A stretch of 64,000 nucleotides of DNA, from contig JAZONM010000018.1 in NCBI GenBank assembly GCA_045654505.1, positions 4,581 to 68,580 of the forward strand, read 5' to 3'. The number at the start of each line of letters is the position of its first letter. Position 1 is the stretch's first letter. Source of the stretch: Clostridia bacterium. Its GTDB lineage: Bacteria > Bacillota > Clostridia > Christensenellales > UBA1242. Under the pieces are notes generated by a model, which was given only the letters and a program-made list of their open reading frames with translations, was not told the origin of the DNA and searched no databases. Positions 1-44,240 of the stretch are shown here, one piece after another. Made by a program: the position numbers and the translations under genes.

Positions 1-89
1 TGTGAGTATAAATTCGGGTTATTTATGCTGATTTTTTTAGATTTAATTTTGTCATAAATTGTATATATTTGTCGTATTTTGTCCCAATA

Positions 90-821
90 CTATAAAATAT
101 CATCATCTATATCTACACTCTGTTTTCTTGGTAAACGCTTTTTTCTTGGTTTTCTAAACATTAAGTAAAGGATAAGGAGAGTCGGAAGAGTAAGGCAAAT
201 GACAATGATTGTGCATTGGGTGTTTGTCAGCGGATTTATTATCTTGGGAGTATCCTCAATAAAGGATAATTTTTCACCATTAGGAAAAACACTCGAAATG
301 CTGCTTACATAACTACTGTAAATATATCCCTTTACATTGAGATATTCGACATAATACCAAGTGTCTTTTCCAAAATCTTCGACTGTCTCGCCAATGGTTT
401 TTCCAATATATTTTAGGCTATCGCAATTAGCGGGTAGTATGGAGATTTTATTATCGTCATTACTCTCAGGGGTGTGTCTTAGATAACAATTTTTATTGTA
501 TGTCAAAATCCTGATATTATCTGGATATGGTATAGCGGGTGTCCCATTCACTTTACGCACTGCTGTGTGTTTTACATAACCGCCAATGCCATTATAATTC
601 ACGCGATATGAGTCATGTGTTTCGCCCACAATCTCGACAAAGTACGTGCTTTCTAGTAGACATATTAGATTGTCATAGTGGGTGTCGTATATATCGTATC
701 GGTATAAAAATTCGCCACTACTAATTATCTGTGCATACTGTGTTTTTTCACAGTATGCACTTTTTATTGGGTTGAATGAGTGGGTCAATAAAAGTATAAG
801 GATAAATAAAAATTTCACCAT
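90..821 (-). CDS. Secreted, C-terminally anchored protein with probable SH3b-like domains
   Basis: N-terminal signal peptide; two SH3b-like segments (YRVNYNGIGGYV; WYYVEYLNVKGYIYSSYV); C-terminal TM helix followed by basic tail; divergent from terminase gene. Confidence 0.6.
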   Translation of the reverse strand: MVKFLFILILLLTHSFNPIKSAYCEKTQYAQIISSGEFLYRYDIYDTHYDNLICLLESTYFVEIVGETHDSYRVNYNGIGGYVKHTAVRKVNGTPAIPYPDNIRILTYNKNCYLRHTPESNDDNKISILPANCDSLKYIGKTIGETVEDFGKDTWYYVEYLNVKGYIYSSYVSSISSVFPNGEKLSFIEDTPKIINPLTNTQCTIIVICLTLPTLLILYLMFRKPRKKRLPRKQSVDIDDDIL

Positions 822-896
822 AGTTTCACCTTAGAAGATTATACAATCTCTTTATGAATTTTTAAAAAAAATGATAAATAAGAAAACAAACTTTGG

Positions 897-903
897 TGTC
901 GAA
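897..903 (+). promoter_or_regulatory. Candidate Spo0A box upstream of terminase gene
   Basis: TGTCGAA, exact match to TGNCGAA, 20 bp before the TerL ATG; only a 7-mer, so chance match possible. Confidence 0.35.
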
Positions 904-923
904 AAAGGAAGATATAAGGAGAA

Positions 924-2357
924 ATGAGAAAAGATGAGATAAAAAAACGTATTTTGCTTATAAACAACGAGCTTAAAAATCGCCAAAACAATGGACGTAT
1001 ATTTGAGTACAATACGGGCGAAAAGGTGCATGAAAAACAGCTTACATTCCATAAATGTGACAAACACAACCGCTGGGTTTTTGGTGGAAATAGGAGCGGT
1101 AAGACTGAGTGTGGTGCTGTCGAGGCTTTGTGGATTGCGAGAGGTATTCATCCATATAGAGAAAATAAAGCGGATACGGAGGGTTGGGTCGTATCATTAT
1201 CTACTCAAGTGCAAAGAGATGTTGCGCAAAGAAAAATACTGCACTATATCAATAAGGATTGGATATATGACGTGGTTATGCTTAGTGGTAAAAAAGACGC
1301 TATGGAGATGGGGGTAATTGACACTCTCATTATAAAGAATGTTTTTGGAGGACTCAGTAGGATAAGTTTTAAAAGCTGTGACCAAGGTCGAGAAAAATTT
1401 CAGGGTACATCGCTTGATTGGGTTTGGTTTGATGAAGAACCACCATACGATATTTACCTTGAGTGTCTTATGCGTGTTATGGATAAAGACGGTGATATTT
1501 TTGGTACAATGACACCTTTAAAAGGGCTTTCATGGGTCTATAATACCATTTTTCTTAATGAGGGTAATAATCCTGAGGTTTGGCATATTCACATGGAGTG
1601 GGCGGATAATCCGTTTTTAAATCAAAAACAAATATCTAGGCTTTCAGAAAGTTTTGGAGAGGAGGAATTGAATGCTCGAAGATTTGGTTTGTTTTCTAGT
1701 TTTGGCGGACTTGTTTATGGCGAGTTTGATAACAATATTCATGTGATTGAGCCATTTGACGTGCCTAAGGAATGGTATGACAAGATTTCAATTGACCCAG
1801 GCTTAAAAAATCCGTTAAGTGCACACTGGTATGCTTGTGATTATGATGGAAATATATATGTAATCGCAGAGCATTATGAAAGTGATAAAGACATAATACA
1901 CCATAGTAAAAAGATATACGATATTTCGGATCGCCTTGGCTGGCATCGTAATCCTAATGGTATGATTGAGGTTTTGATTGATTCTGCTGCAAATCAACGC
2001 ACACTTGCGTCTACAAAAAGTGTAAGCGAACTCTTTTATGACAATGGTATATTAGTAAATTCACGAGTAAATAAAGATATGTTTTCAGGGATTCAGCGTG
2101 TTAAATCATATCTGAAAAACGCCAATGGCAAGGCGCGACTTTTTATATTCAAAAATTGTGTCAATATGATACGTGAAATTAAGGGTTATTTTTGGGGAAA
2201 TGAGGATTTGCCAATAAAAAAGGACGATCATGCAATGGATGACCTCAGGTACTATATTATGAGTCGTCCGGAAAATATAAAGAAAGAAAATATAAAGAGT
2301 CCAGTCCAATTAGACAAGGAGAGAAGAATAAGAGAACTTAGGAGGGAGAGAAGATGA
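924..2357 (+). CDS. Phage terminase large subunit
   Basis: Walker A GGNRSGKT, Walker B WFDEEPP, coupling motif TMTP, nuclease motifs IDPG and DDHAMDDLRY; RBS AAGGAG. Confidence 0.92.
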   Translation: MRKDEIKKRILLINNELKNRQNNGRIFEYNTGEKVHEKQLTFHKCDKHNRWVFGGNRSGKTECGAVEALWIARGIHPYRENKADTEGWVVSLSTQVQRDVAQRKILHYINKDWIYDVVMLSGKKDAMEMGVIDTLIIKNVFGGLSRISFKSCDQGREKFQGTSLDWVWFDEEPPYDIYLECLMRVMDKDGDIFGTMTPLKGLSWVYNTIFLNEGNNPEVWHIHMEWADNPFLNQKQISRLSESFGEEELNARRFGLFSSFGGLVYGEFDNNIHVIEPFDVPKEWYDKISIDPGLKNPLSAHWYACDYDGNIYVIAEHYESDKDIIHHSKKIYDISDRLGWHRNPNGMIEVLIDSAANQRTLASTKSVSELFYDNGILVNSRVNKDMFSGIQRVKSYLKNANGKARLFIFKNCVNMIREIKGYFWGNEDLPIKKDDHAMDDLRYYIMSRPENIKKENIKSPVQLDKERRIRELRRERR

Positions 2358-2638
2358 CCGATAAAGAAAAATTGGAAAAAGCATTGCTGAAGAAAGCACT
2401 TGGTTATACAGCAAAAGAAGTCAGTGAAGAGTATTCGAAGGTTGATGATGATCTTGTTTTGTCTAAGAGAAAACTTAATACAAAAAGTTATCCTCCTGAT
2501 TTGGCGTCCTTGCAATTGATGCTGTCGCGACTTGATAAAGAAGATGAGGAATTTAAAAATATGACCGATGTCGAGCTTTTACATGAAAGAGATAGGCTAA
2601 TTAAATTACTAGAAAAGGAGGAAAAAAGTGGTACTTGA
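2354..2638 (+). CDS. Terminase small subunit-like protein lacking N-terminal HTH
   Basis: EKALLKKALGY...YPPDLAS resembles the ENALLKRALGY...PPDT core of Firmicutes phage TerS; ATGA overlap with TerL stop. Confidence 0.6.
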   Translation: MTDKEKLEKALLKKALGYTAKEVSEEYSKVDDDLVLSKRKLNTKSYPPDLASLQLMLSRLDKEDEEFKNMTDVELLHERDRLIKLLEKEEKSGT

Positions 2639-2837
2639 TGAAGTGACCTATGTCGTTAAGTGCATTATTCCTGGCTGTAGGAATAATGGCAAATATCTAA
2701 TTAAAAATGAGGAAATCCAAGTACCAAGCAAAATCTGTATATGTGAAAAATGCGGAAAAGAAATTTATTCTTTGCTTGGGAAGAAAATTGTTCCGAAAAG
2801 TCCTAAAAATATTTTAAACAAAACAATAAAGAGGTGA
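2628..2837 (+). CDS. Small putative Zn-finger protein
   Basis: CIIPGC...CICEKC cysteine pattern; RBS AAGGAGG before GTG. Confidence 0.55.
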   Translation: MVLDEVTYVVKCIIPGCRNNGKYLIKNEEIQVPSKICICEKCGKEIYSLLGKKIVPKSPKNILNKTIKR

Positions 2838-2841
2838 AAAA

Positions 2842-4722
2842 GTGGATAAAGAATTTGAAGAAAAAATAGTAAAAGAAATACTAGAAGATTTTAATGAAAG
2901 ACGTCAAGCTAGAAAGAGTTTTGAGACGGCATGGCAGTTAAATATAAATTATCTTATTGGTAATCAGTATGCGTATATCAACGGCCAAAATGAAATTGTT
3001 AGTGAGAAAAAACAATATTTTTGGCAAGAACGTGAGGTTTTTAATCATATTGCGCCTTTGGTAGAACTTCGCATATCTAGACTCTCTAAAGTGCGTCCTA
3101 TACTCACAGTGCTTCCTTTTAGTGACGACCCTAAAGACGTTGCATGTGCGAAAGTAAGTAAAAATCTAATTAGGTCTGTGAGTTATGACCTTGATATGAG
3201 CCGTATAATTTCAGAAGCGACAATGTGGAGTGAAATTACTGGTAGTGCATTTTACAAAATAGGTTGGAATAATACAAAAGGCAGATTCATTGGAAAAAAT
3301 GAAACCGGTCGTGATATTTATGAAGGTGAGGTGGATATCAATGTGGTATCTCCATTTGAGATATTCCCAGACAGTAATACATACAATCGTATCGAAGATT
3401 GCAAGAGCATTATTCATGCACGTGCTTATCATAAAGACGAGGTTAGAAATATATGGGGAGTCGATGTGAAAGGTGAGGATACAGATGTATTCTCGTTACA
3501 AAATCTTAATGCTCTAGGTGGTTTAGGTTATACAGGAAATACAGCAAGTGTAGGAAAAATAGTTAAAAAGGATCAAGTAATTGTGCTTGAAAAATATGAA
3601 ATGCCTACAATTGAAAATCCAAACGGTAAATTGACAATTGTGGCAGGAGACCGATTGGTATATATGGGTGAATTGCCTTATGTTAATGGTTTGGGTGGAA
3701 AACGCGCATTCCCATTCATAAGACAAGTGAGTATAGCAGTGCCTAATTCATTCTGGGGTACATCGATAATTGAGAGATGTATACCAATTCAAAGAGCATA
3801 TAATGCTGTCAAAAACAGAAAACATGAGTTTTTGAATAGGATTTCGATGGGTGTGCTTGCTGTAGAGGATGGCTCGCTTGACATTGAAAATCTTGAAGAG
3901 GAGGGTCTGTCTCCAGGTAAAGTACTAGTGTATAGGCAAGGTGCAACACTGCCAAAACTACTTGAGAATGAAAATATCCCGTCAAGCTTTGATACTGAAG
4001 AAGAAAGACTGATGGAGGAGTTTGCTACTGTTTCTGGTGTAAATGACCTACAAAATCAAAGCGTTATGTATGGAAATGTAAGTGGTGTAGTGCTTCAATT
4101 GTTGCTCGAACAAGACGAAGCGCGCATTCAATCAAGTATTGATGAGATAAAGTCAAGTGTAAAAAACATTGCAAAACACATTTTGCGTCTATATAAGGAG
4201 TTTGCAGTAATTCCGCACACAACTCGACTTGTAAATGAGAATGGTGAAATTGAGATGTTGTATTGGAAGAACAGTGACCTTACATGTGAAGATATTGTAT
4301 TCGAAACTGAAAATGAGTTGGCTCAGACAATAGCGCAAAAGAGAAGTATGATTTTCGAAATTCTTAATGCGGGACTTCTGCAAGATGATGATGGCGAAAT
4401 GTCAAATTCGACACGACAAAAGATATTGGAACAATTAGGTTTTGGCATTTTGGAAACTTCAAAAGATGTAAAAACTCTTCATCGAAACAGGGCTAGCAAA
4501 GAAAATTATGATTTGCTTAATAAGAAAGTATTAAGGGAGCCAAAGGAGATTGATGCTCATGATATTCATATAAATGAGCATATATGCTTTGCTTTAGGAA
4601 AAGATTTTGAAAAAGCTGTTCAATACTGTCCAGAACTTGAAAAAGAGATGTATTCACATATAGCAAAACATAAAGAAATGTTAAGAAAAGAATCTTTATT
4701 TGAAGAGAATGCATCTAAATAA
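2842..4722 (+). CDS. Phage portal protein (podovirus/P22-like size)
   Basis: 626 aa between terminase and scaffold/capsid; portal-like segments (VFNHIAPLVE, VVSPFEIFPD, FWGTSIIERCIPIQRAYN); RBS GAGGTG. Confidence 0.8.
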   Translation: MDKEFEEKIVKEILEDFNERRQARKSFETAWQLNINYLIGNQYAYINGQNEIVSEKKQYFWQEREVFNHIAPLVELRISRLSKVRPILTVLPFSDDPKDVACAKVSKNLIRSVSYDLDMSRIISEATMWSEITGSAFYKIGWNNTKGRFIGKNETGRDIYEGEVDINVVSPFEIFPDSNTYNRIEDCKSIIHARAYHKDEVRNIWGVDVKGEDTDVFSLQNLNALGGLGYTGNTASVGKIVKKDQVIVLEKYEMPTIENPNGKLTIVAGDRLVYMGELPYVNGLGGKRAFPFIRQVSIAVPNSFWGTSIIERCIPIQRAYNAVKNRKHEFLNRISMGVLAVEDGSLDIENLEEEGLSPGKVLVYRQGATLPKLLENENIPSSFDTEEERLMEEFATVSGVNDLQNQSVMYGNVSGVVLQLLLEQDEARIQSSIDEIKSSVKNIAKHILRLYKEFAVIPHTTRLVNENGEIEMLYWKNSDLTCEDIVFETENELAQTIAQKRSMIFEILNAGLLQDDDGEMSNSTRQKILEQLGFGILETSKDVKTLHRNRASKENYDLLNKKVLREPKEIDAHDIHINEHICFALGKDFEKAVQYCPELEKEMYSHIAKHKEMLRKESLFEENASK

Positions 4723-4934
4723 AAATGGTGTAGTTATCGTCTAATTGATTATTAAAAAATAACAATTATACGCAAATAAATTAAAACAATTAAAGATATG
4801 AAAATATAATTATTTTCTAAACAAATAACAAAATAAAGTTTATTATAAAATGTTGTTTTTAAATTATATGTAATAGGTTATTACAATATAACTTTACAAA
4901 AATTTCCATACCACAATAAATTAAGGAGAAAAAC

Positions 4935-5549
4935 ATGATAGAAAAAGAAAGTTTTGGAGAACAACCAAAAGAGACCCCTTATGGCGTAGCGACGCAAATT
5001 GAAGAGAAGGCAGGCCTCTCTGATGGCTCTCCAATAGGTAAATTTAAAGATGCCAATATGCTTCTTTCTGCATATAATTCGCTTCAAGCAGAATTTACTA
5101 AAAAATGTCAGAAATTGGCTGAGTATGAGAAAAAACAAGACAATACTCAGGTACCTTGTTTTGATCGAGAAAATTGGCAAGATTCGGTAAACGATTTCTT
5201 TACAAAAAATCCCGAGGCTCGAGAATTGGGAGAGGAAATTGCACAGACTTTGTCTAGCGACAAAACTTTGGCCCTTGGTCAAAGCCCGCTATATGAAGCT
5301 TACAATAATATTTTGAAAAAGAAATGTACCGAAAACAATGACTTTCTGAATAATAATGACAAGATCGTAGACTATGTTTTGAAAAATGAGGACTTAGTAG
5401 GGCGATTGATTGCAAAATTTGCAGAAAGTATACCAAAGACACCTACCTTAATTTCGTCCAAGCGAAGTAGTGCGGAGGTGTTGACTCCTACAAACAAACC
5501 GAAAAATTTGGACGAAGCTAAAGAGATGGTGAATCAAATGTTTAATTAA
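4935..5549 (+). CDS. Probable capsid scaffolding protein
   Basis: Directly upstream of capsid; helical; GKFKD..LLSAYNSLQAEFTK motif resembles scaffold proteins; RBS AAGGAG. Confidence 0.6.
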   Translation: MIEKESFGEQPKETPYGVATQIEEKAGLSDGSPIGKFKDANMLLSAYNSLQAEFTKKCQKLAEYEKKQDNTQVPCFDRENWQDSVNDFFTKNPEARELGEEIAQTLSSDKTLALGQSPLYEAYNNILKKKCTENNDFLNNNDKIVDYVLKNEDLVGRLIAKFAESIPKTPTLISSKRSSAEVLTPTNKPKNLDEAKEMVNQMFN

Positions 5550-5563
5550 AAAGGAGAAATTTT

Positions 5564-6745
5564 ATGGTAACTTTATCAACAGCAGATAAAGCATTGAAAA
5601 GTGTTTATCTTGGTGTTCTTACCAATCAATTTAATCTAAACACCAATCCTTTATTTGCAAAAATCAAACAATCAAGCACATACGTAACAGGAAAAGAGGT
5701 ATTAAAAACAGCACCTTATGGAATTAATGGTGGTATTGGTGCCGGAACTGAAGACGGAGCACTTCCTACTGCAAGTGGAAATAGCTATGTGCAATTAAAA
5801 CAAACTCTTAAAAACCTATATGGTACAATTGAAATTAGTGACAAAGCAATACGCGCTAGTCAAAACAATGCAGGTGCATTTGTTAATCTTCTAAATGCCG
5901 AAATGGAGGGATTGATTAAAGCAAGTACTTTCAATTTTAGCAGAATGTTGATGGGAGATGGCTCAGGCATTTTGAGTAGAATTGTGACAGCAAGTGGCAA
6001 TTATGCGACAGTAGATAATGTGTCAAATATCATGGAAGGTATGATTGTTGACATTTTCAATGCAGATCTTGGCGAAATGCAAAATGATTATCGTGGTACA
6101 AAAATATTGAGTATTGATCGTGCTAAAAAACAAGTAACATTTGACAAAACTGTAGGTAATGTCGAAGATGTAAATGACGGCGGTTGCGCATTGATTGTAC
6201 AAAATTCATTAAATAACGAGATCTTCGGTCTAAAAGGTATTTTTGATACAGTTAATTTTCACTATATCTATGGTCTAAATCGTCAAGAACATCATTGGTT
6301 GACACCATATATTGACAAAGCAGCAGGTGAATTGTCTGATGCGAAAATCCAAACAGCAATTGACTATGTAGAAGATTATTTTGGAAGTGATATTGACTTT
6401 ATTACTTGCTCAAGTGATGTAAAACGTGCATACCAAACATATCTTGCATCTATATCTCGTAATATCGATATTATGAATCTTAATGGTGGATTTAGAGCAA
6501 TTAGTTATGCTGGTGTGCCACTACTTAGTGATAGATTTATGGAAAGTGGTACTATGTATCTTCTAAATTCTAAAAACTTCACGCTTCACCAACTTTGTGA
6601 TTGGGAATGGCTTGAAGACGAAGATGGTAGCATCTTAAAACAAAAACCTGGTTATCCTTGCTATAGTGCAACATTGGTTAAGTACGCAGAATTGATGTGC
6701 GAAAAACCATGTGGACAAGCAAAACTAGCAGGTATTACTGTATAA
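5564..6745 (+). CDS. Phage major capsid protein
   Basis: 393 aa after portal/scaffold; capsid-like segments (LKNLYGTIEISD, AEMEGL, YAGVPLLSDRF); strong RBS; followed by terminator. Confidence 0.8.
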   Translation: MVTLSTADKALKSVYLGVLTNQFNLNTNPLFAKIKQSSTYVTGKEVLKTAPYGINGGIGAGTEDGALPTASGNSYVQLKQTLKNLYGTIEISDKAIRASQNNAGAFVNLLNAEMEGLIKASTFNFSRMLMGDGSGILSRIVTASGNYATVDNVSNIMEGMIVDIFNADLGEMQNDYRGTKILSIDRAKKQVTFDKTVGNVEDVNDGGCALIVQNSLNNEIFGLKGIFDTVNFHYIYGLNRQEHHWLTPYIDKAAGELSDAKIQTAIDYVEDYFGSDIDFITCSSDVKRAYQTYLASISRNIDIMNLNGGFRAISYAGVPLLSDRFMESGTMYLLNSKNFTLHQLCDWEWLEDEDGSILKQKPGYPCYSATLVKYAELMCEKPCGQAKLAGITV

Positions 6746-6760
6746 ATTTAATATTGTGGG

Positions 6761-6790
6761 AGTGGTGGGGTATTCCCACCACTTTCTTTA
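6761..6790 (+). terminator. Intrinsic terminator after capsid gene
   Basis: AGTGGTGGG-gtatt-CCCACCACT hairpin followed by T-rich tract. Confidence 0.7.
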
Positions 6791-6805
6791 TTTAAAAGGA
6801 TTGAA

Positions 6806-7177
6806 ATGAAGAAAATTGAAAATGATTTATTTAATATCTCTGAAAGACTTAAAAATATCGATAGTGGATATTATTTAGTATACAATAATCGTCGTAGTAG
6901 ATATGAGGTGAGAAATAGTGATTTGGGTGATAAAATTTGCTTTGTTGTGCCATACAAATCATTGGACGAAAGGACGCTAATATACGCTCGAAAAACTTTT
7001 ATAAATAATAGCAAAAAATTGCTTAGTGACATCGAGAAAAATAATAAGGATATAGAGGATAAAAATTACAATAGGATTAAGGACGAGTGTCAATACAAAT
7101 TTAAAGAAATTTTTAATTATGAAAAATGTTCGAAAGAAATGAAAATGAATCAATCATTCAAAACAAAATGGGTATAA
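6806..7177 (+). CDS. Hypothetical virion-cassette protein
   Basis: 123 aa ORF with RBS AAAGGA inside the structural operon. Confidence 0.6.
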   Translation: MKKIENDLFNISERLKNIDSGYYLVYNNRRSRYEVRNSDLGDKICFVVPYKSLDERTLIYARKTFINNSKKLLSDIEKNNKDIEDKNYNRIKDECQYKFKEIFNYEKCSKEMKMNQSFKTKWV

Positions 7178-7186
7178 GGAGGAAAA

Positions 7187-7744
7187 ATGAAAGTTAAAGA
7201 AATTTTGAAAAATTGTGCAATATTATTAGATGATATAAAACTTGCAAAAAGTATTGAGAATGGAGACTGTACTGCTCAAGAAAATGAAGTGAGAGAAATG
7301 CTTCTTGAGTGCTGTCATATAGCAAATACTCGTATCGCTAGCGAATTTGTATTTCTAAAAGATGAAGTAGAGGTTGCTACATCAAATGGCGAAATCGCTT
7401 TTGATAATCTTTCTGCTAAAAACATACTGGATATAATTGCTGTAACAAAAGATGGTTATCCTATCAAATTTAATGTAAGAAAGGCTAAAATTTACACACA
7501 AAGCGGAAAAGTGAATGTACAGTATTCTTATTTGCCTGAGAAACATGACATTGATGATGATATTGACTATTATCCTGGTAGAATAAGTGAAAGAGTAATT
7601 GCTTATGCGACAGTGTCGGAGTATTTAGCTATTAAAGGAAATATTGACGAGTCTATTATGTGGAACGATAAATTCAAATCTAGTATCTCAAAGGTCTATG
7701 CAAAACATCGTGAAATCATTTTGCCAAAGCGCGCTTGGAGGTAG
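7187..7744 (+). CDS. Probable head-tail adaptor protein
   Basis: 185 aa after capsid; helical N and C termini around beta segment (VNVQYSYLP); RBS AAGGAGG; function inferred from position. Confidence 0.5.
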   Translation: MKVKEILKNCAILLDDIKLAKSIENGDCTAQENEVREMLLECCHIANTRIASEFVFLKDEVEVATSNGEIAFDNLSAKNILDIIAVTKDGYPIKFNVRKAKIYTQSGKVNVQYSYLPEKHDIDDDIDYYPGRISERVIAYATVSEYLAIKGNIDESIMWNDKFKSSISKVYAKHREIILPKRAWR

Positions 7745-7745
7745 T

Positions 7746-9209
7746 ATGAAAAATATATTAAAATACAAAACTTACGATTATTCGTCTTTGGATAAAGGTA
7801 TTGCGGTCGATAAAAATCCTAATGTTGTTTCTTCTGGGTATTCGGAAAAGTGTTTTAATTTTTCTTACAAAGATGGTGGACTTAGAGACGGTATTGGAAT
7901 AAATGAGATTAAATATTATCCATACGGAAGCAATATTGATGTTATATATTCTTTTCCTGAGACTTTATCGCCTGTAAAAATAACTCAATTTCCATTTTAT
8001 AATGAGGAGATGAGTTATGATGATAGAATGATTATATTTATATGCGAAGATGGTAGTGTGTATGGTTGGAAACCTAATGCTTCTAGTGAAGGCTTGCTTG
8101 CTTTGCCTTTTGAAGTGACTAAGGACACTATACTATTGAATTATGTCTTTGAAAACCAGACATACTTGTATGCAATAAATGATGGGGTAATGTATATTTA
8201 CAATATGACCTCAAAACACTTGGAAAAAATTCAAGAAAACGTACCTTTATTTGAAGAAATATGCTTTTATAAAGAACATGTATTTGGCAGGATTAAGGAT
8301 AAAAAACACACTCTTTGGTGCTCGGCTCAGAAAAATCCGGCTAATTGGTTGAGTGATGTCAATACATATTCATTTATTGATTTTAATGATTTAAAAGGTA
8401 ATTGTCTAAGACTCATATCTACAATTGATGGATTATATGTTTTTAGAGAATACGGAATTTCAAAAATAATCTTCAATGAAAATGAAGGAATTTTTGAGAC
8501 AGAAGAAGTGTGTAAAAGTACGGGAAAAATCTTTGGAAACAGTATCCAAGAATGTGGCGATTCTTTTGTATATATTACGACAGACGGATTGTATACATTT
8601 AATGGGATTTCGTCAAAAAAGATAACGACTCGAATGGAAGATGTCATCAGGCGACATTTTACTCACTTCTCACTTACTGCGTACAATAATGGCAAATATT
8701 ATGTTGCTTTGAAAATCAATTATGATGATGGCATATTTAATGATGGACATTATCAAAATAATACATTGATTGAATTGGATCTTGCAGACCTTACTGAAAA
8801 CATTCTTCGCGGTGTTGGTATTGTAGAACTGTCTAGTATAAATGAAGTCAATTCTTCTTTTATGTTTGCTATTATAAATACTGTCGGAAAAAACAAGGTT
8901 GGAGTAATCGGTAGGGGTGGAAAAATATTTGGAACTCCTTTGAAAAAGTATTGGAGGAGTGTGGAAAGCGACTATGGTTTGCCACATAAAAAGAAAATAA
9001 TTAGTAGATTCTTTATCGTTTCAAAAAGTGATATAAAAATAACTTTTCATGGTGATAATAAATCGTATTATTTTCAAATAAAAGGTAGCGAAAATGTACA
9101 GATTCTAAAACCAAATCTTTCAGCATATCGCTTTAGTGTGGAAATTGAGTCTAGTAGTGCTGATAATGACATAACAAATCTTAAAGCATTGGTGGGTTAT
9201 TATGATTAA
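7746..9209 (+). CDS. Probable podovirus tail nozzle/DNA-stabilisation protein (beta-propeller)
   Basis: Start reassigned to ATG 7746 after GGAGG; beta-rich blade-like repeats (LWCSAQKNPANW, LYVFREYGI, GLYTFNG); follows adaptor. Confidence 0.5.
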   Translation: MKNILKYKTYDYSSLDKGIAVDKNPNVVSSGYSEKCFNFSYKDGGLRDGIGINEIKYYPYGSNIDVIYSFPETLSPVKITQFPFYNEEMSYDDRMIIFICEDGSVYGWKPNASSEGLLALPFEVTKDTILLNYVFENQTYLYAINDGVMYIYNMTSKHLEKIQENVPLFEEICFYKEHVFGRIKDKKHTLWCSAQKNPANWLSDVNTYSFIDFNDLKGNCLRLISTIDGLYVFREYGISKIIFNENEGIFETEEVCKSTGKIFGNSIQECGDSFVYITTDGLYTFNGISSKKITTRMEDVIRRHFTHFSLTAYNNGKYYVALKINYDDGIFNDGHYQNNTLIELDLADLTENILRGVGIVELSSINEVNSSFMFAIINTVGKNKVGVIGRGGKIFGTPLKKYWRSVESDYGLPHKKKIISRFFIVSKSDIKITFHGDNKSYYFQIKGSENVQILKPNLSAYRFSVEIESSSADNDITNLKALVGYYD

Positions 9210-10386
9210 AAGTGATAATCGCTACGTTGCGTCAATTTATGGGACCACTCGCAAGCTTAAAAAAATGTACGACAAAGTCAGCAAAAGTAAATATTCTGCC
9301 AAAATCATAAAACTAAATCTAAGTTGTGCCGAAATCAATGAAAATGCTGTAAATTTCGTATTTGATGGATTAAAAGGAAGTATTGCACAATTTGTATTAG
9401 ATATCAATCAAAATGTCGATAGTCGTATGAAGTTTTCGCTCAATAATGTGACCATAGAAGAGAAAAATATAGCAAATGGAAGAATATATTTTACAGGTAT
9501 TATAGATAGTAAAAATTATATAAAAATTTTATTTTCAGACATCTCAAATCTAAATGATTTGTCAATTGAGATAATAGGTGAAGTGGCATATCAAAACAAT
9601 TTGTTTGAGTATAAAGTAGTGAGTTATTCAGATGGTATTTTATTATGCAAAACAGCCAATCAAAAAAGAATTTATCACGCAAACACTCTAGAAAACGTCA
9701 ATGAAAAAATCGCTCAAAAAAATTGCATCGAGTATGCAAAAAATTACCTCTTGGATTATGTGTATTTGCAGGGTGTAGATGGCGAGAAAAATCAAGAAAT
9801 TATGCTAGTAAATGATGGGAATATTCTTTTGCGAAATTTATCCACAAATACAACTCTGGTTATAGCAGATAAAGCAGATATGGGCTGTGTCATAGAATGT
9901 AATAATTCGTTTTGCAAAATAGCATTAGTTGTGAATGAAAAACTATGTTTTTTCGATATCGGTAATGACATGACCGTGACAAAATTGTCAAATTTTCTTC
10001 AAATAAATGAGAAAATTTTATCGATTTCTGGTATTCAGTTGTTTTCATCTTATAGAGAGGGCCTGCTTATTACTACAGACAGAAAAACGACTTACATTGT
10101 ATTTTTTAATAGTGATAATCTTCCTTTTGTCTATGACATAATCCATCATGCAAATGATGCACAAGGCACAATAATTGCCGACAAAATGTATCTTTTTGTA
10201 AAGAATTATGATAAGGCGATTAGTATATATGTCTACCAATTCTTAGAGCAAGAATTTTATAGAAAAAAGGTTATATTTCAAAAACAATATTTTAATTGTG
10301 ATGGGATGTTTGTTTTTGACGAAAAAATACATTTTATAAGCAATGGACTATGTACGGAGGAAGGACTTGAAGAGGATATGTCCTAG
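9202..10386 (+). CDS. Hypothetical beta-rich tail-associated protein
   Basis: 394 aa ORF overlapping the previous gene; no recognisable motif. Confidence 0.45.
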   Translation: MIKSDNRYVASIYGTTRKLKKMYDKVSKSKYSAKIIKLNLSCAEINENAVNFVFDGLKGSIAQFVLDINQNVDSRMKFSLNNVTIEEKNIANGRIYFTGIIDSKNYIKILFSDISNLNDLSIEIIGEVAYQNNLFEYKVVSYSDGILLCKTANQKRIYHANTLENVNEKIAQKNCIEYAKNYLLDYVYLQGVDGEKNQEIMLVNDGNILLRNLSTNTTLVIADKADMGCVIECNNSFCKIALVVNEKLCFFDIGNDMTVTKLSNFLQINEKILSISGIQLFSSYREGLLITTDRKTTYIVFFNSDNLPFVYDIIHHANDAQGTIIADKMYLFVKNYDKAISIYVYQFLEQEFYRKKVIFQKQYFNCDGMFVFDEKIHFISNGLCTEEGLEEDMS

Positions 10387-10447
10387 TCTTGGAAAAGAGA
10401 TAATAAATCAAAATCTAAAAAAATTTCAATTTAAAGGAGGAAACTCA

Positions 10448-11137
10448 ATGTTTGACTACAATCTTGATGATGCTTTTTCTTCTGCATTAAGTATAGCTGA
10501 AAATGAAGAGATGAGCATGAAAATGACAGAGCTAAACAATAAAATCGAAAATATGACATCTACCTTGATGGGTGAGAAGGAAGAGGAAGAAGCTGAGCTT
10601 GTACCTACATGGCTTGATAAAGCACTTGACCTCGAATTTCTGTCACCAGAGGATAAGGAAGAATATGAAAAATATGACTCGCTAAATAATACTCTTACTG
10701 GTCAATTAAATGGAATTTACCTTGAAATCGAACGTCTAAACAATGATAGACTAAGAGCATTGAAAGACTTTGATATTCCGACTGTTGTGGAGATTGACAC
10801 AAAACTCCAACAACTTTCAAAAGATTATAAAGAGAAATATGCGTCAGCAGAAGATGCAAGGAAAGAAATTATGTCCAAGAAAAACGAATGGGAGATAAGT
10901 CTTGATGATTTATCAAATAGCCTTAAGGGCGAGACTTGGGACATAAAAAAATCTTTTGATGCAAGTAAATACCAAAAAAGTGTCGTAAAAGAGTACAAGA
11001 AAAACAAAACCTTTGAAATGGTCAAAGATTTTGTTGAGGCTTTTCCAGCGGATAAAAGAAAAGATGTACTCAGAAATCCCCGCATTAAAGAAATGCTAGA
11101 TGGCGACTACAATAAGTTGGTCGCTGAGTATATGTAA
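10448..11137 (+). CDS. Coiled-coil hypothetical protein (possible ejection/internal protein)
   Basis: Start reassigned to ATG 10448 after AAAGGAGG; charged helical sequence. Confidence 0.5.
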   Translation: MFDYNLDDAFSSALSIAENEEMSMKMTELNNKIENMTSTLMGEKEEEEAELVPTWLDKALDLEFLSPEDKEEYEKYDSLNNTLTGQLNGIYLEIERLNNDRLRALKDFDIPTVVEIDTKLQQLSKDYKEKYASAEDARKEIMSKKNEWEISLDDLSNSLKGETWDIKKSFDASKYQKSVVKEYKKNKTFEMVKDFVEAFPADKRKDVLRNPRIKEMLDGDYNKLVAEYM

Positions 11138-11138
11138 A

Positions 11139-11378
11139 ATGTGGGATAAGATAATAAATCTTGCATTGAGCAACGGAATTTGGGCAGTCTTATTTCTAAT
11201 GCTTTTGGTGTTTCAATTGAAAGATAGTAAAACTCGAGAAAACAAATACCAACAAACAATAGAAAATCTGGGCAATGCCCTTCAAGTGGTAAAGGAAGTG
11301 AAGGAAGACGTAGAGGAAATTAAGCAAACACTAAATACAAGAAGGAGAAAAGTAAAGGATGAAGAAAGTATTGAGTAA
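11139..11378 (+). CDS. BhlA/UviB-family holin-like protein
   Basis: MWDKIINLALSNGIWAVLFLMLL...RENKYQQTIENL, typical of BhlA/UviB; ATG 11139 just after preceding stop. Confidence 0.8.
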   Translation: MWDKIINLALSNGIWAVLFLMLLVFQLKDSKTRENKYQQTIENLGNALQVVKEVKEDVEEIKQTLNTRRRKVKDEESIE

Positions 11379-11667
11379 ATTTAAAAAGTATTCATTTTGG
11401 ATTGCTTTTACCGGAGTCGTAGTTATATTTATAAAAAACATTGCCGAGCTTTTTGGTATTGAGATAGATACCGGAGCTATAGAGAATGTGATAATGTCGT
11501 TATGTGGAGTGTTGGTCGTACTAGGTCTGGTGATTAAAGAGGACGAATCTGCAAAGGCTGAGGAAAACAATCTCTTTGAGTCAGGCAATAATGATGTAAA
11601 TGATAATTGTGAGACATCTACACCTTCAGAAAAAACAAATAATGATGACTCAAGTATAGAAAAATAA
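11359..11667 (+). CDS. Phage holin-like two-TM protein
   Basis: KFKKYSFWIAF motif, two TM helices, acidic tail. Confidence 0.6.
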   Translation: MKKVLSKFKKYSFWIAFTGVVVIFIKNIAELFGIEIDTGAIENVIMSLCGVLVVLGLVIKEDESAKAEENNLFESGNNDVNDNCETSTPSEKTNNDDSSIEK

Positions 11668-11746
11668 CCATTCTTCCAAATAATATTTTTCAATAAAAAA
11701 CTTTTAATTTTGAATATGTTTTGCTATAATACATGAAAGGTGAGTT

Positions 11747-12697
11747 ATGTTATACAAAAATACATTCAAAATTTTATTTTCAAATGGCGGACTTATTTGG
11801 CGCGTATTGCTATTTTTGGTTTGCGCTTTAGGGGTCTTGATTGGTCTTGGTTCATTGATACTAATGCCAATCCACAAGGTGCTAGTCGGAGCCGGTTTTT
11901 TTGTCATGATAAGTGATGCTTATTATGATTTTCTTAATGCTGTCAATCTAAAACAATTGTTTGTCGATATTGGCGATATTGTTGAGAGTTTTTTTGCAAT
12001 AATTGTGGATAATATTGGTCAACTTTTACCATACATAATTATTTTTGTTTTCTTTGTTGTTTTTGTATGTACGCTTATTACTCGTTTTTATACAATGAGC
12101 ACTACAATATGTGTTAATTATTATATGAACAGTAATACTAAAGTAAAAATGTCCAACAATATTTTCGCATCGTTTGGAAAAAATATTAAGTATTTGCTTG
12201 CTTATGCTGTAACAGTACTACCAATAAATCTAATCATTTATGGTATTGTGTTCTTTATGTTGGGATTATTTGAGTTGGACGGATTGTTGTTTGCTTTTGC
12301 ACCATTTTTGATTATTCTTACATACACACTACTTGCATCGCTTAAGACAACCTTGTTTGGTGGTTGGTTGCCAGCGATTGTGTGTGGAAATAAAGGTGCT
12401 TTTGCATCAATGAAAAAAGGATTTGTTGTGCCAAAACGTAGATTTTGGCAAACATTCGGCAATTCATTTGCACTTTACCTTACTATTATATTCCTAAATT
12501 TCTTTGTAGGACTTTTAACTTTTGGTGTAGGACTTTCAATAACAATCCCAGCTACTTGTGTGACTGTTTGTATTTTTGGACTTGTAAGCTTCTATATGGC
12601 TACCGGTCAAAAATATTATGTCGATAGTTATAATGTAATAGCTCCTAAGACCAAAGAATTGACAGACAAATTTGAAAATCATAAATATATTGTTTAG
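11747..12697 (+). CDS. Multi-pass membrane protein of unknown function
   Basis: About 6 hydrophobic segments; own TGnTATAAT element upstream; terminator downstream. Confidence 0.7.
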   Translation: MLYKNTFKILFSNGGLIWRVLLFLVCALGVLIGLGSLILMPIHKVLVGAGFFVMISDAYYDFLNAVNLKQLFVDIGDIVESFFAIIVDNIGQLLPYIIIFVFFVVFVCTLITRFYTMSTTICVNYYMNSNTKVKMSNNIFASFGKNIKYLLAYAVTVLPINLIIYGIVFFMLGLFELDGLLFAFAPFLIILTYTLLASLKTTLFGGWLPAIVCGNKGAFASMKKGFVVPKRRFWQTFGNSFALYLTIIFLNFFVGLLTFGVGLSITIPATCVTVCIFGLVSFYMATGQKYYVDSYNVIAPKTKELTDKFENHKYIV

Positions 12698-12706
12698 TTT
12701 TTAATG

Positions 12707-12733
12707 AGACACTCCTCGTGAGTGTCTTTTTTT
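12707..12733 (+). terminator. Intrinsic terminator
   Basis: AGACACTC-ctcgt-GAGTGTCT followed by poly-T. Confidence 0.75.
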
Positions 12734-12763
12734 GTCGATTGATTTAAAATTATATAAAAGGGC

Positions 12764-12792
12764 TTGCAAATACTTAAAAAATAGGGTATTAT
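12764..12792 (+). promoter_or_regulatory. SigA-type promoter of rnj operon
   Basis: TTGCAA-17 bp-TATTAT. Confidence 0.55.
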
Positions 12793-12982
12793 TATTAAAA
12801 CACATCAGCGAGGGGTTGTGGGCTTAAAACCTCGTTGTCATTATATTCAAATAGCACACTTGGTGTTTTTTCGTTGTTTTGATGCGGTCAAAACGCTTTG
12901 TTGTGTCTAAATTTTATGTGTTATTAGCATAATGTGGCAATCACATTAGTGTTTTTATTATTAAATATTTTAAGGAGAAATT

Positions 12983-14653
12983 ATGAACAAACGAACTACA
13001 CAAAATTTAAAACTATCTTTTTTAGGCGGTGTAGGTGAAGTAGGTAAAAACTTGATGTGCCTTGAGTACGGTAATGATATGATTCTTATTGACTCAGGAC
13101 TTGCATTTCCTTCAGATGATATGATGGGTGTTGACCTAGTAATCCCTGATGTGACATACCTTATCAACAACCGCCAAAAAATAAAGGGCATAGTCCTTAC
13201 ACACGGACATGAGGACCATATAGGAGCGCTTCCATATATTTTACAAGACATCAGTGCTCCTGTATACGGAAGTCGTCTTACTTGTGCCCTTGTAGAAAAC
13301 AAACTTCGCGAGCACAAAAAAATCAATTGCAAACCTATCGTTGTAAAACCAAAACAAGTTGTCAAAATGGGTTGTTTTTCAGTTGAGTTTGTAAAAGTGA
13401 CACATAGTATTGCAGGGGCATATGGTCTTGCAATAACTACACCTGTCGGTGTATACTTCCACACTGGTGACTTCAAGATTGACTTGACACCAATTGACGG
13501 TGACGCGATGGATATGGCTCGTCTTAGCGAAATTAGTAAGCAAGGAGTTCTTCTTATGACAAGTGACTCTACCAATGCTGAGAGGCCGGGCTTTAGTATG
13601 AGTGAAAGAAAGGTAGGCGCGAGCATTGACAGTCTATTTGCACAAAATAAAGAAAAACGCGTGATAATCGCGACTTTTGCATCAAATATTCACCGTATCC
13701 AACAAATACTTGATATTTGTAAAAAGTACGATCGTAAGGTGGTGTTTACAGGAAGAAGCATGCTTAATGTGTGCGAAACAGCAAGCAAAATCGGCGAATT
13801 ACGTTTTGACCGTAGCATTCTTGGTGACCTAAACAATGTTGACAAGATGGCAGACGAACATACATGTATTATATGTACTGGTTCGCAAGGTGAGCCAAAC
13901 AGTGCATTGTCTCGTATGGCAGACGGTCAATTTCCAAAAATCGAAATCAATAATAATGACGTAATAATTTTCTCGTCATCAGCAATTCCAGGCAATGAAA
14001 CAAATATCAATATTGTTATCAACCAACTTTATCGTAAAGGCGCGACAGTAGTCCATGACCGTGACGCAGATGTTCATACATCTGGACACGCATATCAAGA
14101 AGAACAAAAGATAATGTTGTCTCTATTAAAGCCAAAATTCTTTGTTCCTTGCCATGGAGAATACAGACATCTTCGTGCTCATTCATTGTCAGCACAAGCA
14201 CTTGGTATTCCTGAGCGAAACATTGTACTTGCTGACCTTGGTGACCAAATTAGCATAAGCCGTAATGCAATTAAGAAAACAGGCACAGTACCTGCAGGAA
14301 TTCGCCTAGTAGACGGATTTGAAGTGACAGAAGCGGGCGGTGCAGTACAAAGAGATAGAGCCCTTCTTGCAGAAGAGGGGGTTGTGATGGCGATAATCAC
14401 AATCTCAGCAGCCAGCGGTCGTCTTACATCAAAACCTGACCTTATATCTCGTGGTTTTGTCTATATACAAGGCAATGAAGACCTATTTGATGAGGCGAGG
14501 GATATAATGCTAAACTCAATTATTAGTACCAATTTCAAAACTCAAGATTGGGCACAAATCAAGCAAAATTTGAAAAAGGTGCTTACAAATTATTTCTATA
14601 AAAGAATCCGTCGTAGACCAATGATAGTACCTGTTATTATCGAGACAGAATAG
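12983..14653 (+). CDS. rnj: Ribonuclease J
   Basis: LGGVGEVGKN, THGHEDHIG metallo-beta-lactamase motif, TGSQGEP, HTSGHA. Confidence 0.96.
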   Translation: MNKRTTQNLKLSFLGGVGEVGKNLMCLEYGNDMILIDSGLAFPSDDMMGVDLVIPDVTYLINNRQKIKGIVLTHGHEDHIGALPYILQDISAPVYGSRLTCALVENKLREHKKINCKPIVVKPKQVVKMGCFSVEFVKVTHSIAGAYGLAITTPVGVYFHTGDFKIDLTPIDGDAMDMARLSEISKQGVLLMTSDSTNAERPGFSMSERKVGASIDSLFAQNKEKRVIIATFASNIHRIQQILDICKKYDRKVVFTGRSMLNVCETASKIGELRFDRSILGDLNNVDKMADEHTCIICTGSQGEPNSALSRMADGQFPKIEINNNDVIIFSSSAIPGNETNINIVINQLYRKGATVVHDRDADVHTSGHAYQEEQKIMLSLLKPKFFVPCHGEYRHLRAHSLSAQALGIPERNIVLADLGDQISISRNAIKKTGTVPAGIRLVDGFEVTEAGGAVQRDRALLAEEGVVMAIITISAASGRLTSKPDLISRGFVYIQGNEDLFDEARDIMLNSIISTNFKTQDWAQIKQNLKKVLTNYFYKRIRRRPMIVPVIIETE

Positions 14654-14662
14654 GAGATAGAT

Positions 14663-15256
14663 TTGAAAAATATTGAAGAATTGGAAAAATACGCACATGA
14701 AAATTTTGTACCAATTATCCGCCCAAACACACTTGACCACCTAGTTTTGCATGTGCAAAAATATAAGCCGCACAACATACTTGAAATAGGTACAGCAATC
14801 GGTTATAGCGGTATAAAGATGCTAATGAATGGAGATATTGACTCAAAGCTAACAACAATCGAGAAAAACGAAAAGTCATTTGAGATTGCAAAACAAAACT
14901 TTGCACAATTTGGCATGACAGAAAGAGCAGAGTGTATCCTAGGTGATGCAAAAGAGGTATTGCCAAGACTTGTGCAAGAAAACAGAAAATTCGATATGAT
15001 TTTTCTTGATGGCCCTAAAGGTCAGTATATCTATTATCTTCCTTATCTAAAACAACTTCTGACTAAAGATGGCAGTATATTTGCAGACAATGTGCTGTTT
15101 CGCGGTATGGTACAAAGCACTGAATTTATCCCACATCGCAATCGCACAATAGTGGTCAATCTTCGCAAATATCTCGATGAGGTCAATAAAGCACCATTTA
15201 CTAGCACGATATATGATATTGAAGATGGTTTTTGCATATCAGTATCAAAAAAATAA
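14663..15256 (+). CDS. trmR: SAM-dependent O-methyltransferase (YrrM/TrmR-like)
   Basis: LEIGTAIGYS, FDMIFLDG.KGQY, ADNVLF; adjacent to U32 gene. Confidence 0.8.
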   Translation: MKNIEELEKYAHENFVPIIRPNTLDHLVLHVQKYKPHNILEIGTAIGYSGIKMLMNGDIDSKLTTIEKNEKSFEIAKQNFAQFGMTERAECILGDAKEVLPRLVQENRKFDMIFLDGPKGQYIYYLPYLKQLLTKDGSIFADNVLFRGMVQSTEFIPHRNRTIVVNLRKYLDEVNKAPFTSTIYDIEDGFCISVSKK

Positions 15257-15277
15257 AAAACACAAGAAAGGTGAAAT

Positions 15278-16510: not shown

Positions 16511-16650
16511 TTTTATAGCTTCAAAATTAAATAATGTAAATTTACATTTGAGTTTGTGATTGAATATTTTGTAGAATATGATTCTTAAAAAAGTAAAGGA
16601 ATGCTATATTTAGCATTTCTTTTTTTGTTTTTTTATGACAAAACTTTCTG

Positions 16651-16680
16651 TCAATATTCGCCATGCTTCGACATATAAAT
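16651..16680 (+). promoter_or_regulatory. SigE/SigK-type promoter of sigK with overlapping reverse Spo0A box
   Basis: ATA-~15 bp-CATATAAAT; TTCGACA at 16667-16673. Confidence 0.5.
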
Positions 16681-16700
16681 AGTGTAGAAGGCAGGTAGAT

Positions 16701-44129: not shown

Positions 44130-44240
44130 TTCAATTCAAATAGTAAAAAAGGCAAATACAAGAATTTGTCTTTTTTTATTGCAATTTGTAATAATTTGTT
44201 TTATTATATAAATAATAAAATTAGTATAATGAGGAATATT

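Follow-up and report, generated by a model that had tools for sequence, protein, structure and literature searches.

A host-owned, phage-derived particle cassette in Christensenellales as a candidate short-tailed gene transfer agent

The subject of this study is a cassette of phage-type genes found in a stretch of 64,000 nucleotides from a Clostridia bacterium of the order Christensenellales. The stretch, here called the window, is positions 4581-68580 of contig JAZONM010000018.1 (contig C18 of genome G000 in our numbering), and the assembly is 1.01 Mb and 94% complete. At 924-11667 on the + strand lie 13 co-oriented open reading frames (ORFs), packed tightly or overlapping, which run from the gene for the large terminase subunit (TerL) to two holin genes. 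A first-pass annotation, which was made from the sequence without database searches, had described such a co-oriented run ending in two holins, and had proposed that it is a stand-alone virion cassette maintained by its host and a candidate gene transfer agent (GTA); the ORF listing gives the arrangement as described there. We are highly confident that the element is a phage-derived particle module which has long been owned by the bacterial lineage (a viriform), and not a resident prophage.

The cassette opens with its packaging genes. TerL (924-2357), an ATPase plus nuclease, matches Terminase_6N with 53.5 bits (cut-off 22) and phrog_2 with E 4e-29; in a set of 37 stop-free orthologues its Walker A, Walker B, coupling and acidic nuclease motifs show a conservation of 95% or more. 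The next gene, g94 (2354-2638), encodes a small-terminase-like protein of 94 aa with a match to phrog_309 'terminase small subunit' (E 1.5e-5) and none to a Pfam or NCBIfam family. The same profile is matched by 23/24 of the g94 orthologues (best E 1.2e-10), and phrog_23444 by 7/24; the match to phrog_309 is restricted to profile positions ~197-262 of 319. It is followed by g69 (2628-2837), a zinc-ribbon-like protein of 69 aa with four cysteines, seen in the translation as two CxxC pairs, which has orthologues in many, not all, of the loci and no match among the Pfam, PHROG and NCBIfam families.

The head genes follow. The portal gene (2842-4722) is P22/SU10-like, with 62.5 bits to P22_portal (cut-off 26.1) and E 8.4e-34 to phrog_156; to SU10_portal it scores 27.8 bits, which is under the cut-off of that model. 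A protein of 204 aa, g204 (4935-5549), is a putative scaffolding protein by its position, since an ORF of this type sits between portal and capsid in every locus; it has no family match. The major capsid protein (5564-6745) matches phrog_14242 'major head protein' with E 3.3e-55. Its nearest clusters in the ESM Atlas carry SU10_MCP on 19-37% of their members, and its profile gave no significant match to the sequences in the PDB. One genus of the same family has two intact capsid genes in tandem, 48% identical to each other (locus L206, G210:C2, at 8035-9207 and 9162-10379).

Downstream of the capsid gene the family matches become sparse. The 123-aa conserved protein of the virion module, g123 (6806-7177), has no significant family match; its orthologues follow the capsid gene across the order and are found also in f96, a family of another order. 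The putative head-to-tail adaptor g185 (7187-7744, 185 aa) is so named by its position and its architecture, and matches neither PHROGs nor PDB sequences. The gene after it, g521, has a raw ORF at 7644-9209 with a likely start at the ATG at 7746, directly after the preceding stop, so the protein (7746-9209) would have 487 aa. It is an all-beta protein, and 13/18 of its orthologues match phrog_3287 'virion structural protein' (best E 1.6e-12); its profile has no significant match to PDB sequences, the single hit being at E = 0.056. AlphaFold models of both proteins were built from alignments of 18 sequences. That of g185 (pLDDT 90.8) has a bundle of helices at the N-terminus, then a small domain of beta strands, a pair of helices at the C-terminus and a loose tail, and that of g521 (pLDDT 85.5, pTM 0.86) consists of beta strands throughout, which by eye may be read as a propeller-like fold with a C-terminal sandwich. 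Presumably these shapes fit a head-to-tail adaptor and a nozzle or hub as known from tails of the T7 and P22 types. Structure prediction, which the first-pass annotation had suggested as a check, has thus given confident models, from which the two roles are read by eye only.

The distal part of the cassette begins with a hypervariable slot, which in the window holds g394 (9202-10386), an orphan of 394 aa and a putative receptor-binding or distal tail protein. An ORF of 327-404 aa occupies this slot in 16/18 loci of the same genus. These ORFs fall into clade-specific BLAST groups, with similarity within clades only. A search of 5.8 billion protein clusters gave g394 itself a single relative, with 97% identity, and Pfam, PHROGs, NCBIfam and the ESM Atlas had no match to it (best score in the latter 0.83). 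Judged from the sequences, the pattern would resemble that of a cell-recognition protein under diversifying pressure. The charged 264-aa protein g264 (10343-11137) matches DUF7934 weakly, below the cut-off, and belongs to a family which is kept before the holins, with 24 ORFs in one BLAST family that includes other families of the order. The lysis genes are a holin of the BhlA family (11100-11378; Holin_BhlA, 61.9 bits, cut-off 22.6) and a class-1 phage holin (11359-11667; Phage_holin_1, 29.1 bits, cut-off 22; phrog_297 'holin'). Of the roles assigned in the first pass, those of TerL, the TerS-like protein (TerS being the small terminase subunit), portal, capsid and holins are borne out by family matches; the labels scaffold, adaptor, nozzle-like and coiled-coil have no such match and are putative readings of position or architecture. 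No curated family above its cut-off was found for g204, g123, g185, g394 and g264.

A regulator gene, sigL, and a membrane protein gene, SH3m, precede TerL. Most of sigL lies to the left of the window (C18:4033-4611), and its 3' end takes up window positions 1-31 on the + strand. It encodes a 192-aa sigma-70-region-4-like regulator which matches phrog_36 'transcriptional regulator' (E 9.5e-11) and, weakly, Sigma70_r4_2/DUF1492; a profile of 19 orthologues matches region 4 of RpoE, SigF, SigW and FliA weakly (E 1.5e-4 to 5e-2). It is linked to TerL in 17/17 same-genus loci, in 5/5 genomes in which TerL has moved, and in several other families. The divergent gene SH3m (90-821, - strand) encodes a type-I membrane protein of 243 aa with an extracellular SH3 domain (SH3_3, 28.4 bits), a signal peptide and a C-terminal transmembrane (TM) segment. 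It is found between sigL and TerL in 17/17 same-genus loci and has been kept where the three genes have been relocated together; SH3m is co-inherited with sigL and TerL. In other families a divergent ORF of 250-330 aa is kept between the regulator and TerL.

There is some indication of how the cassette is expressed. A GC-rich hairpin followed by a T run, attenuator- or terminator-like, is located just 3' of the capsid gene (6758-6786, + strand), with a stem of 13 pairs of which 7 are GC. A stable hairpin is present at this position in 15/25 loci (z <= -3.5 relative to shuffled sequences), and since the stem sequences differ its recurrence suggests a maintained control of expression. Upstream of TerL, the 120 nt compared in 14 loci showed no conserved promoter motif, and a scan for sigma-70 promoters gave a count hardly above that of shuffled sequences (81 against 62.9 ± 7.6).

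The genes which a prophage would have next to its virion genes were not found. In the window and in the 4.6 kb to its left the family searches gave no integrase, repressor or replication gene. Among the cassette ORFs there was no match to a tape measure, tail-tube or sheath protein and none is longer than the portal. No direct repeat of att type joining the two borders stood out from chance, as the longest had 11 bp, a length equalled or exceeded in 90% of the shuffles. The absences listed in the first-pass annotation are therefore upheld, also in the sequence left of the window, which it could not see and which adds the regulator. The two tyrosine recombinases of the genome are both on other contigs, and the TerL of the cassette is the sole terminase match in the assembly with the two terminase families searched. 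The composition of the cassette is that of its host: the G+C content of third codon positions is 0.277, against 0.276 in long host ORFs, and the codon-usage distance is within the range of random sets of host genes. Contigs from 4 sequencing runs of 2 studies span window positions 1-17000 at ~98% identity and bridge both borders. No contig in those runs was seen to join across and skip the cassette, which is weak evidence because contigs drop rare variants. Joints such as that of 11608 to 16517 were set aside, having one short side (21 bases) and low support. The runs which contain the locus are animal gut metagenomes, mainly ruminant.

The cassette is nearly universal among close relatives. 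In the genus, the capsid gene was found in 23/24 other species, the one miss being a genome which is 63% complete, and in the rest of the family in 20/20 sampled genomes; patchy presence among close relatives, named in the first pass as an observation that would speak against host ownership, does not apply. There was a single capsid match in 21/23 genomes of the genus, and in the other two the gene was in two pieces. In the order, at a threshold of E <= 1e-20, 191/401 sampled genomes match the capsid (166/346 of those of high quality), with a very uneven spread over families: 17/21, 17/20, 6/6, 6/7 and 10/11 in some, 0/21, 0/21, 0/20, 0/12, 0/20 and 0/20 in others. A class-wide sample gave 28/400 genomes, 15 of them from outside the order; of these 15, nine come from the single family f96. 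In most of the other families of Clostridia sampled, the capsid profile had no match. A relative was confirmed in at least 595 loci of species-representative genomes, mostly from uncultured Clostridia, Christensenellaceae, Christensenella sp. and Candidatus Borkfalkia. For the nine f96 genomes the match to this profile is at about E 1e-142. In four loci of this family (L220-L223) only the capsid (46-47% identity) and g123 are shared, and a TerL and a portal of the present kind were not found within 10 kb; judged from gene content, the f96 locus may represent another element which has this capsid at its core.

The inheritance of the cassette follows that of the host in its main lines. The order sigL, SH3m, TerL and onwards to the holins is kept in 17/17 loci of the genus, which answers the call for a synteny check made in the first pass, and the gene order is conserved in nine further families, where the flanks are differing housekeeping genes. 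Downstream of the cassette the genes for rnj, an O-methyltransferase (OMT) and a U32 peptidase are present in 10/17 same-genus loci, while one clade of six has other ORFs there or the contig ends. The identity between the window and the same-genus loci is 64-70% for TerL, 54-62% for the portal and 50-62% for the capsid, compared with 65-74% for rnj, 63-69% for U32 and 48-58% for OMT; the cassette has diverged to much the same extent as the core genes beside it. For 15 genomes, maximum-likelihood trees were built from RpoB+RpoC and from TerL+portal+capsid; the two trees have three fully supported clades and two sister pairs in common, and the pairwise distances in cassette and host are correlated with r = 0.94 over 91 pairs, which are non-independent.

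Orthologues of the cassette genes have near-constant lengths and are stop-free. In the closest pair of genomes (G012/G023) the ratio dN/dS, calculated by the Nei-Gojobori method (NG86), was 0.024 for TerL, 0.039 for the portal, 0.076 for the capsid and 0.07-0.21 for the other cassette genes, compared with 0.017-0.051 for the flanking genes; these values are rough because dS is saturated in every pair. Relaxed selection, which the first-pass annotation had named as an argument against its own proposal, is thus at variance with ratios of 0.02-0.21 and with intact ORFs, which speak for purifying selection. It should be added that genomes of this family are only 0.8-1.2 Mb at 98-100% completeness, so that the cassette amounts to ~1% of the DNA.

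Another arrangement was found in a sister genus, in which the locus is split (G168:C1, G280:C11, G118:C2, G191:C2 and G056:C9; loci L209-L213, L203 and L205). In 5/5 genomes searched (0.8-0.9 Mb, 98-100% complete) the trio sigL-SH3m-TerL is intact, and is separated by host genes from a block with g94, portal, capsid, g521 and holin, likewise intact, on the same contig. The distance is 38-53 kb in 4 genomes and ~10 kb in 1. Genes for g394 and g264 are lacking in this genus. A split arrangement of this kind is unworkable for a phage and workable for a system which is run by the host.

Taken together, the locus has structural and packaging genes and no replication, integration or lysogeny genes, it is inherited vertically in its major clades, with the caveat on topology given below, and all particle genes are under purifying selection, as far as the rough values go. 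An integrase, att site or replication/lysogeny module adjoining the cassette, as expected of an integrated functional prophage, was not found. Synteny, the near-universal single copy, the shared clades, selection and the lack of integrase and att site uphold the proposal that the cassette stands alone and is maintained by the host. That it is domesticated and under selection we hold to be very likely. That it is, as a whole, a domesticated particle module which is short-tailed and most likely GTA-like is in our opinion the probable explanation. Packaging of host DNA in a GTA-like way, which is deduced from the gene content, we put slightly on the likely side, and transfer of this DNA to recipients would be less certain than that.

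How such a system could work may be outlined as follows. The linked sigma-region-4-like regulator would activate the cassette as a single long operon, probably in a fraction of the cells. A procapsid would be assembled from portal, putative scaffold and capsid protein, and the hairpin after the capsid gene would keep capsid messenger in excess over that of the tail genes. TerL, the motifs of which are intact, and g94 would fill the heads by a headful mechanism. As there are no replication genes and no excision, the host chromosome would be the only substrate, and we propose that the cargo is host DNA as in GTAs. The proteins g123, g185 and the all-beta g521 would close the portal and form a short tail, of which the hypervariable g394 together with g264 would make up the distal, cell-recognising part. 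The two holins would open the membrane, and as the locus has no endolysin a murein hydrolase of the host would, we propose, be required as well.

Several points weigh against this picture or limit it. An approximately unbiased (AU) test rejects identical topologies for cassette and host (p = 0.017 and 0.009), hence the fine-scale branching differs between them; of the congruence with the host phylogeny that the first-pass annotation wanted examined, the major clades stand and identical topology does not. The capsid of the window is 61-63% identical to that of another clade and 51% to that of its sister species, unlike TerL, portal and RpoB/C which follow the species tree; capsid genes may have been exchanged between clades, and recombination and model error are both possible causes. 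The saturation of dS makes the estimates of selection rough. We infer that g94 has no recognisable DNA-binding domain because its match to phrog_309 covers part of the profile; relatives of at least 218 aa were not found, which is weak evidence. The assignments of g185 as adaptor and g521 as nozzle are putative readings of models and position. The distal tail genes are absent from 2/18 same-genus loci and from three other genera of the family, so the particles of these lineages may be tail-less or use other genes. No endolysin was found in the locus. The assembly lacks about 6% of the genome, and the contig stops 4.6 kb to the left of the window. There is no RNA run among the runs which contain the locus, which is uninformative either way; the element is known from its genes, and its capsid might be large enough to take up the locus itself.

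The main rival is that the particle is domesticated and serves a purpose other than gene transfer, be it killing in the manner of PBSX, programmed lysis with release of DNA or nutrients, or a defence by altruistic lysis, so that the packaged DNA would be an undelivered by-product. All the evidence for domestication fits this possibility equally well. Two holins and a dedicated regulator suit a lysis programme, and the dispensability of the distal tail genes in several lineages suggests that adsorption and injection are not always needed; the same question has been left open for the GTA-like element of Faecalibacterium prausnitzii, in the sections of that report on which we draw (PMC12946183). 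On the other side TerL motifs, TerS-like gene and portal are intact everywhere, split loci included, which would be hard to explain were DNA packaging irrelevant. A short-tailed particle, moreover, has no contractile or long tail to kill with, going by what is established for tailocins, and ComEC and DprA, though common genes, are retained in a genome of 1.0 Mb. All considered, we find a use without transfer unlikely, without dismissing it.

The two other explanations deny that the module belongs to the host, or that it has a use. A temperate phage, active now or recently, or a satellite resembling a capsid-forming phage-inducible chromosomal island (PICI), might have inserted repeatedly into one and the same place, the genes for lysogeny and replication being located elsewhere or not recognised as such. 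The structural genes are indeed all intact, 64 contigs with this capsid gene are listed as viral by IMG/VR, a few genomes have two or three capsid matches, and distant relatives (33-38% identity) are found on viral contigs of 42-60 kb. When 7 of the close IMG/VR contigs were checked, however, 3 had host flank genes and the rest cassette genes only, and among 50,697 phage records there are only 14 matches, with <=27% identity. The surroundings of the locus yielded no integrase, repressor, replication gene or att repeat, and no contig skips it; host and cassette trees have clades in common, divergence is core-like, codon usage is that of the host, and in a whole genus TerL is up to 53 kb from the portal. 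We therefore regard an active phage or satellite as very unlikely. Neutral drift of a dead prophage remnant which has not yet decayed would account for the lack of lysogeny and replication modules and for the loss of some distal genes in some lineages. It would not account for ORFs which are intact and of constant length in 17/17 same-genus loci and in other families, for dN/dS far under 1, for the retention of ~1% of the DNA in genomes of 0.8-1.2 Mb (98-100% complete), or for the persistence of both halves after the split, and a neutral remnant is in our judgement very unlikely indeed. The reading as a host-run particle module, most likely GTA-like, is the one with which we go on below.

The neighbours of the cassette deserve a brief description. 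The left flank, 4,580 bases up to the contig end, holds an ABC-2 fragment, a 928-aa surface protein and the 192-aa regulator. The surface protein (- strand; L002 914-3700) is secreted and membrane-anchored, and its place to the left of the cassette is conserved within the genus. It is similar to SH3m in layout, as both combine a signal peptide and SH3-like repeats with a single TM helix at the C-terminal end and a charged tail. On the right a polytopic membrane protein of 316 aa without family match, mem316 (11747-12697, + strand), is followed directly by a terminator-like hairpin (12706-12728) and then by rnj, OMT and U32; the divergent SH3 membrane gene at the left and rnj at the right are both where the first pass had put them. 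Within the genus mem316 was detected in 12 loci, each time after the holins, and in the loci of other families it was not found; it is possibly the last gene of the unit, a membership which is uncertain.

Two observations concern the genome at large. ComEC (G000:C2:40385-41176) and DprA (C12:32794-33408), which are common genes, are retained in this genome of 1.01 Mb; their presence is the one result here with a bearing on delivery of DNA to recipients. The genome also encodes four secreted proteins of 6,492-7,577 aa (C14:18220-40953, C5:152483-174034, C5:131916-152117 and C5:69782-89260) and several of 1,600-2,950 aa; the window contributes to this set at about 44229-49037. These giant proteins take up a very large share of a small genome, and may point to a life attached to surfaces or dependent on a host.

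To our knowledge GTAs have been well studied almost only in Alphaproteobacteria, and in Gram-positive bacteria only PBSX and, recently, the element FpGTA of F. prausnitzii have been described. PBSX of Bacillus subtilis is, like the present element, maintained by a Gram-positive host, and is a defective phage which packages host DNA and lyses its producer. It has a long contractile tail and is a killing particle. A defective phage of the PBSX kind was considered for the cassette and rejected: TerL scores 24.9 bits with the PBSX-family terminase model TIGR01547, far below its cut-off of 105, and contractile-tail genes were not found.

Among isolated phages the nearest relatives are podoviruses. 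The 14 phage records matched by the capsid, with 22-27% identity, are from Arthrobacter phage Jasmine and its relatives, Microbacterium phage Shocker and Cellulosimicrobium phage DS1. Jasmine has the same order of TerL, small ORFs, portal, an ORF and capsid as our locus, in which the portal is of the P22/SU10 type and the capsid of the SU10 type. It is a podovirus whose head measures 60 nm and whose tail measures 10 nm, according to the part of its description used here (PMC5513430). Jasmine with its relatives and Shocker differ from the cassette in being autonomous lytic phages of Actinobacteria with 45-47 kb genomes. No relation of the tails was detectable when g185 and g521 were compared by hhalign with two Jasmine virion proteins (probabilities 1.8% and 8.1%), and the distant IMG/VR contigs mentioned above likewise share head genes only with the cassette. 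Judged from its P22/SU10-type portal, from the absence of tail-tube, sheath and tape-measure matches and from these isolates, the particle may be of podovirus type; adaptor and nozzle are putative readings of models. Capsid-forming PICIs (cf-PICIs) are small chromosomal elements which, like the cassette, have capsid, portal and terminase genes of their own. They have integrase, replication and regulatory genes, are mobile and borrow the tails of helper phages. The present locus differs in having no integrase or att site and in being vertically inherited; with the two families searched, its own terminase was the only one to be found in the genome.

RcGTA, from Alphaproteobacteria, is siphovirus-like, has a tape measure and is controlled by host-encoded regulators. 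GTAs of its type resemble the cassette in having head-tail genes without replication or integration genes, vertical inheritance at the level of an order, purifying selection, host-like composition, a short TerS without DNA-binding domain and, in some lineages, genes spread over more than one locus; the likeness is drawn partly from the sections of PMC12946183 used here. The present particle would be short-tailed, has a sigma-like regulator of its own linked to it and holins in the locus, and has no sequence relationship with RcGTA.

The first-pass annotation had stated that no GTA of this kind had been characterised in Clostridia. This is outdated: FpGTA, a podovirus-like GTA-like element, has been published with electron microscopy, proteomics and packaged-DNA data, so that the kind is already known and the claim of novelty no longer holds. 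As described in the parts of the report on which we rely (PMC12946183), FpGTA consists of an operon 1 of 10.5 kb with TerS, TerL, portal, scaffold, capsid and short-tail genes and, ~125 kb away, an operon 2 of 5.5 kb with baseplate, fibre, holin and endolysin genes. The particles are ~40 nm and carry ~8.5-9 kb of host DNA; capsid and portal of FpGTA I are RCH50849.1 and RCH50851.1. The same source mentions GTA-like packaging of evenly spread host DNA for metagenome-assembled genomes of Christensenellaceae (HGM11616 and QANA01; 3/25 events), with no gene cluster assigned to it (PMC12946183). In the literature searched, no gene cluster of this kind has been described in Christensenellales, and the present family with its breadth and evolutionary history did not turn up either.

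It is tempting to connect the two. The cassette could be the gene cluster behind the GTA-like packaging seen for Christensenellaceae in virus-like particles from human faeces; it would then be an ancient, order-wide GTA of podovirus ancestry, domesticated independently of FpGTA, in which a tail protein of the g394 type sets the range of recipients. We offer this tentatively, as a conjecture which is somewhat more likely to fail than to hold. In any case the cassette supplies named genes which can be set against a packaging activity without an assigned cluster. If the GTA-like reading is true, this is a GTA of such long standing that genomes of 0.8-1.0 Mb still retain it, even as two separated loci. 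Next to FpGTA the locus defines another candidate family in the gut Clostridia, one with a far wider distribution, being found in no fewer than 595 species-level genomes and in roughly half of one order. Host ownership is supported by an unusually clean evolutionary record, and the fact that strongly reduced genomes spend ~1% of their DNA on a particle argues for a real benefit.

Compared with FpGTA, as far as the sections of that report used here go (PMC12946183), there are several points of likeness. Both have a gut host of the class Clostridia, an operon of ~10 kb with head and short-tail genes and no replication or integration genes, both are near-ubiquitous in their genus, and in both holins are part of the system. 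The organisation differs. In FpGTA TerS (CDS15) comes before TerL (CDS16), whereas in our locus the TerS-like gene comes after TerL; FpGTA has two operons which include an endolysin gene, whereas here there is one locus in which an endolysin was not found. The locus thus does not have the TerS-before-TerL order and the second operon of the FpGTA family, and it is by organisation that the two are set apart. The range also differs, as homologues of FpGTA were reportedly not found in neighbouring genera, and the present family spans an order. Finally, particle, proteomic and cargo data exist for FpGTA, whereas the cassette of Christensenellales has been described here from its genes.

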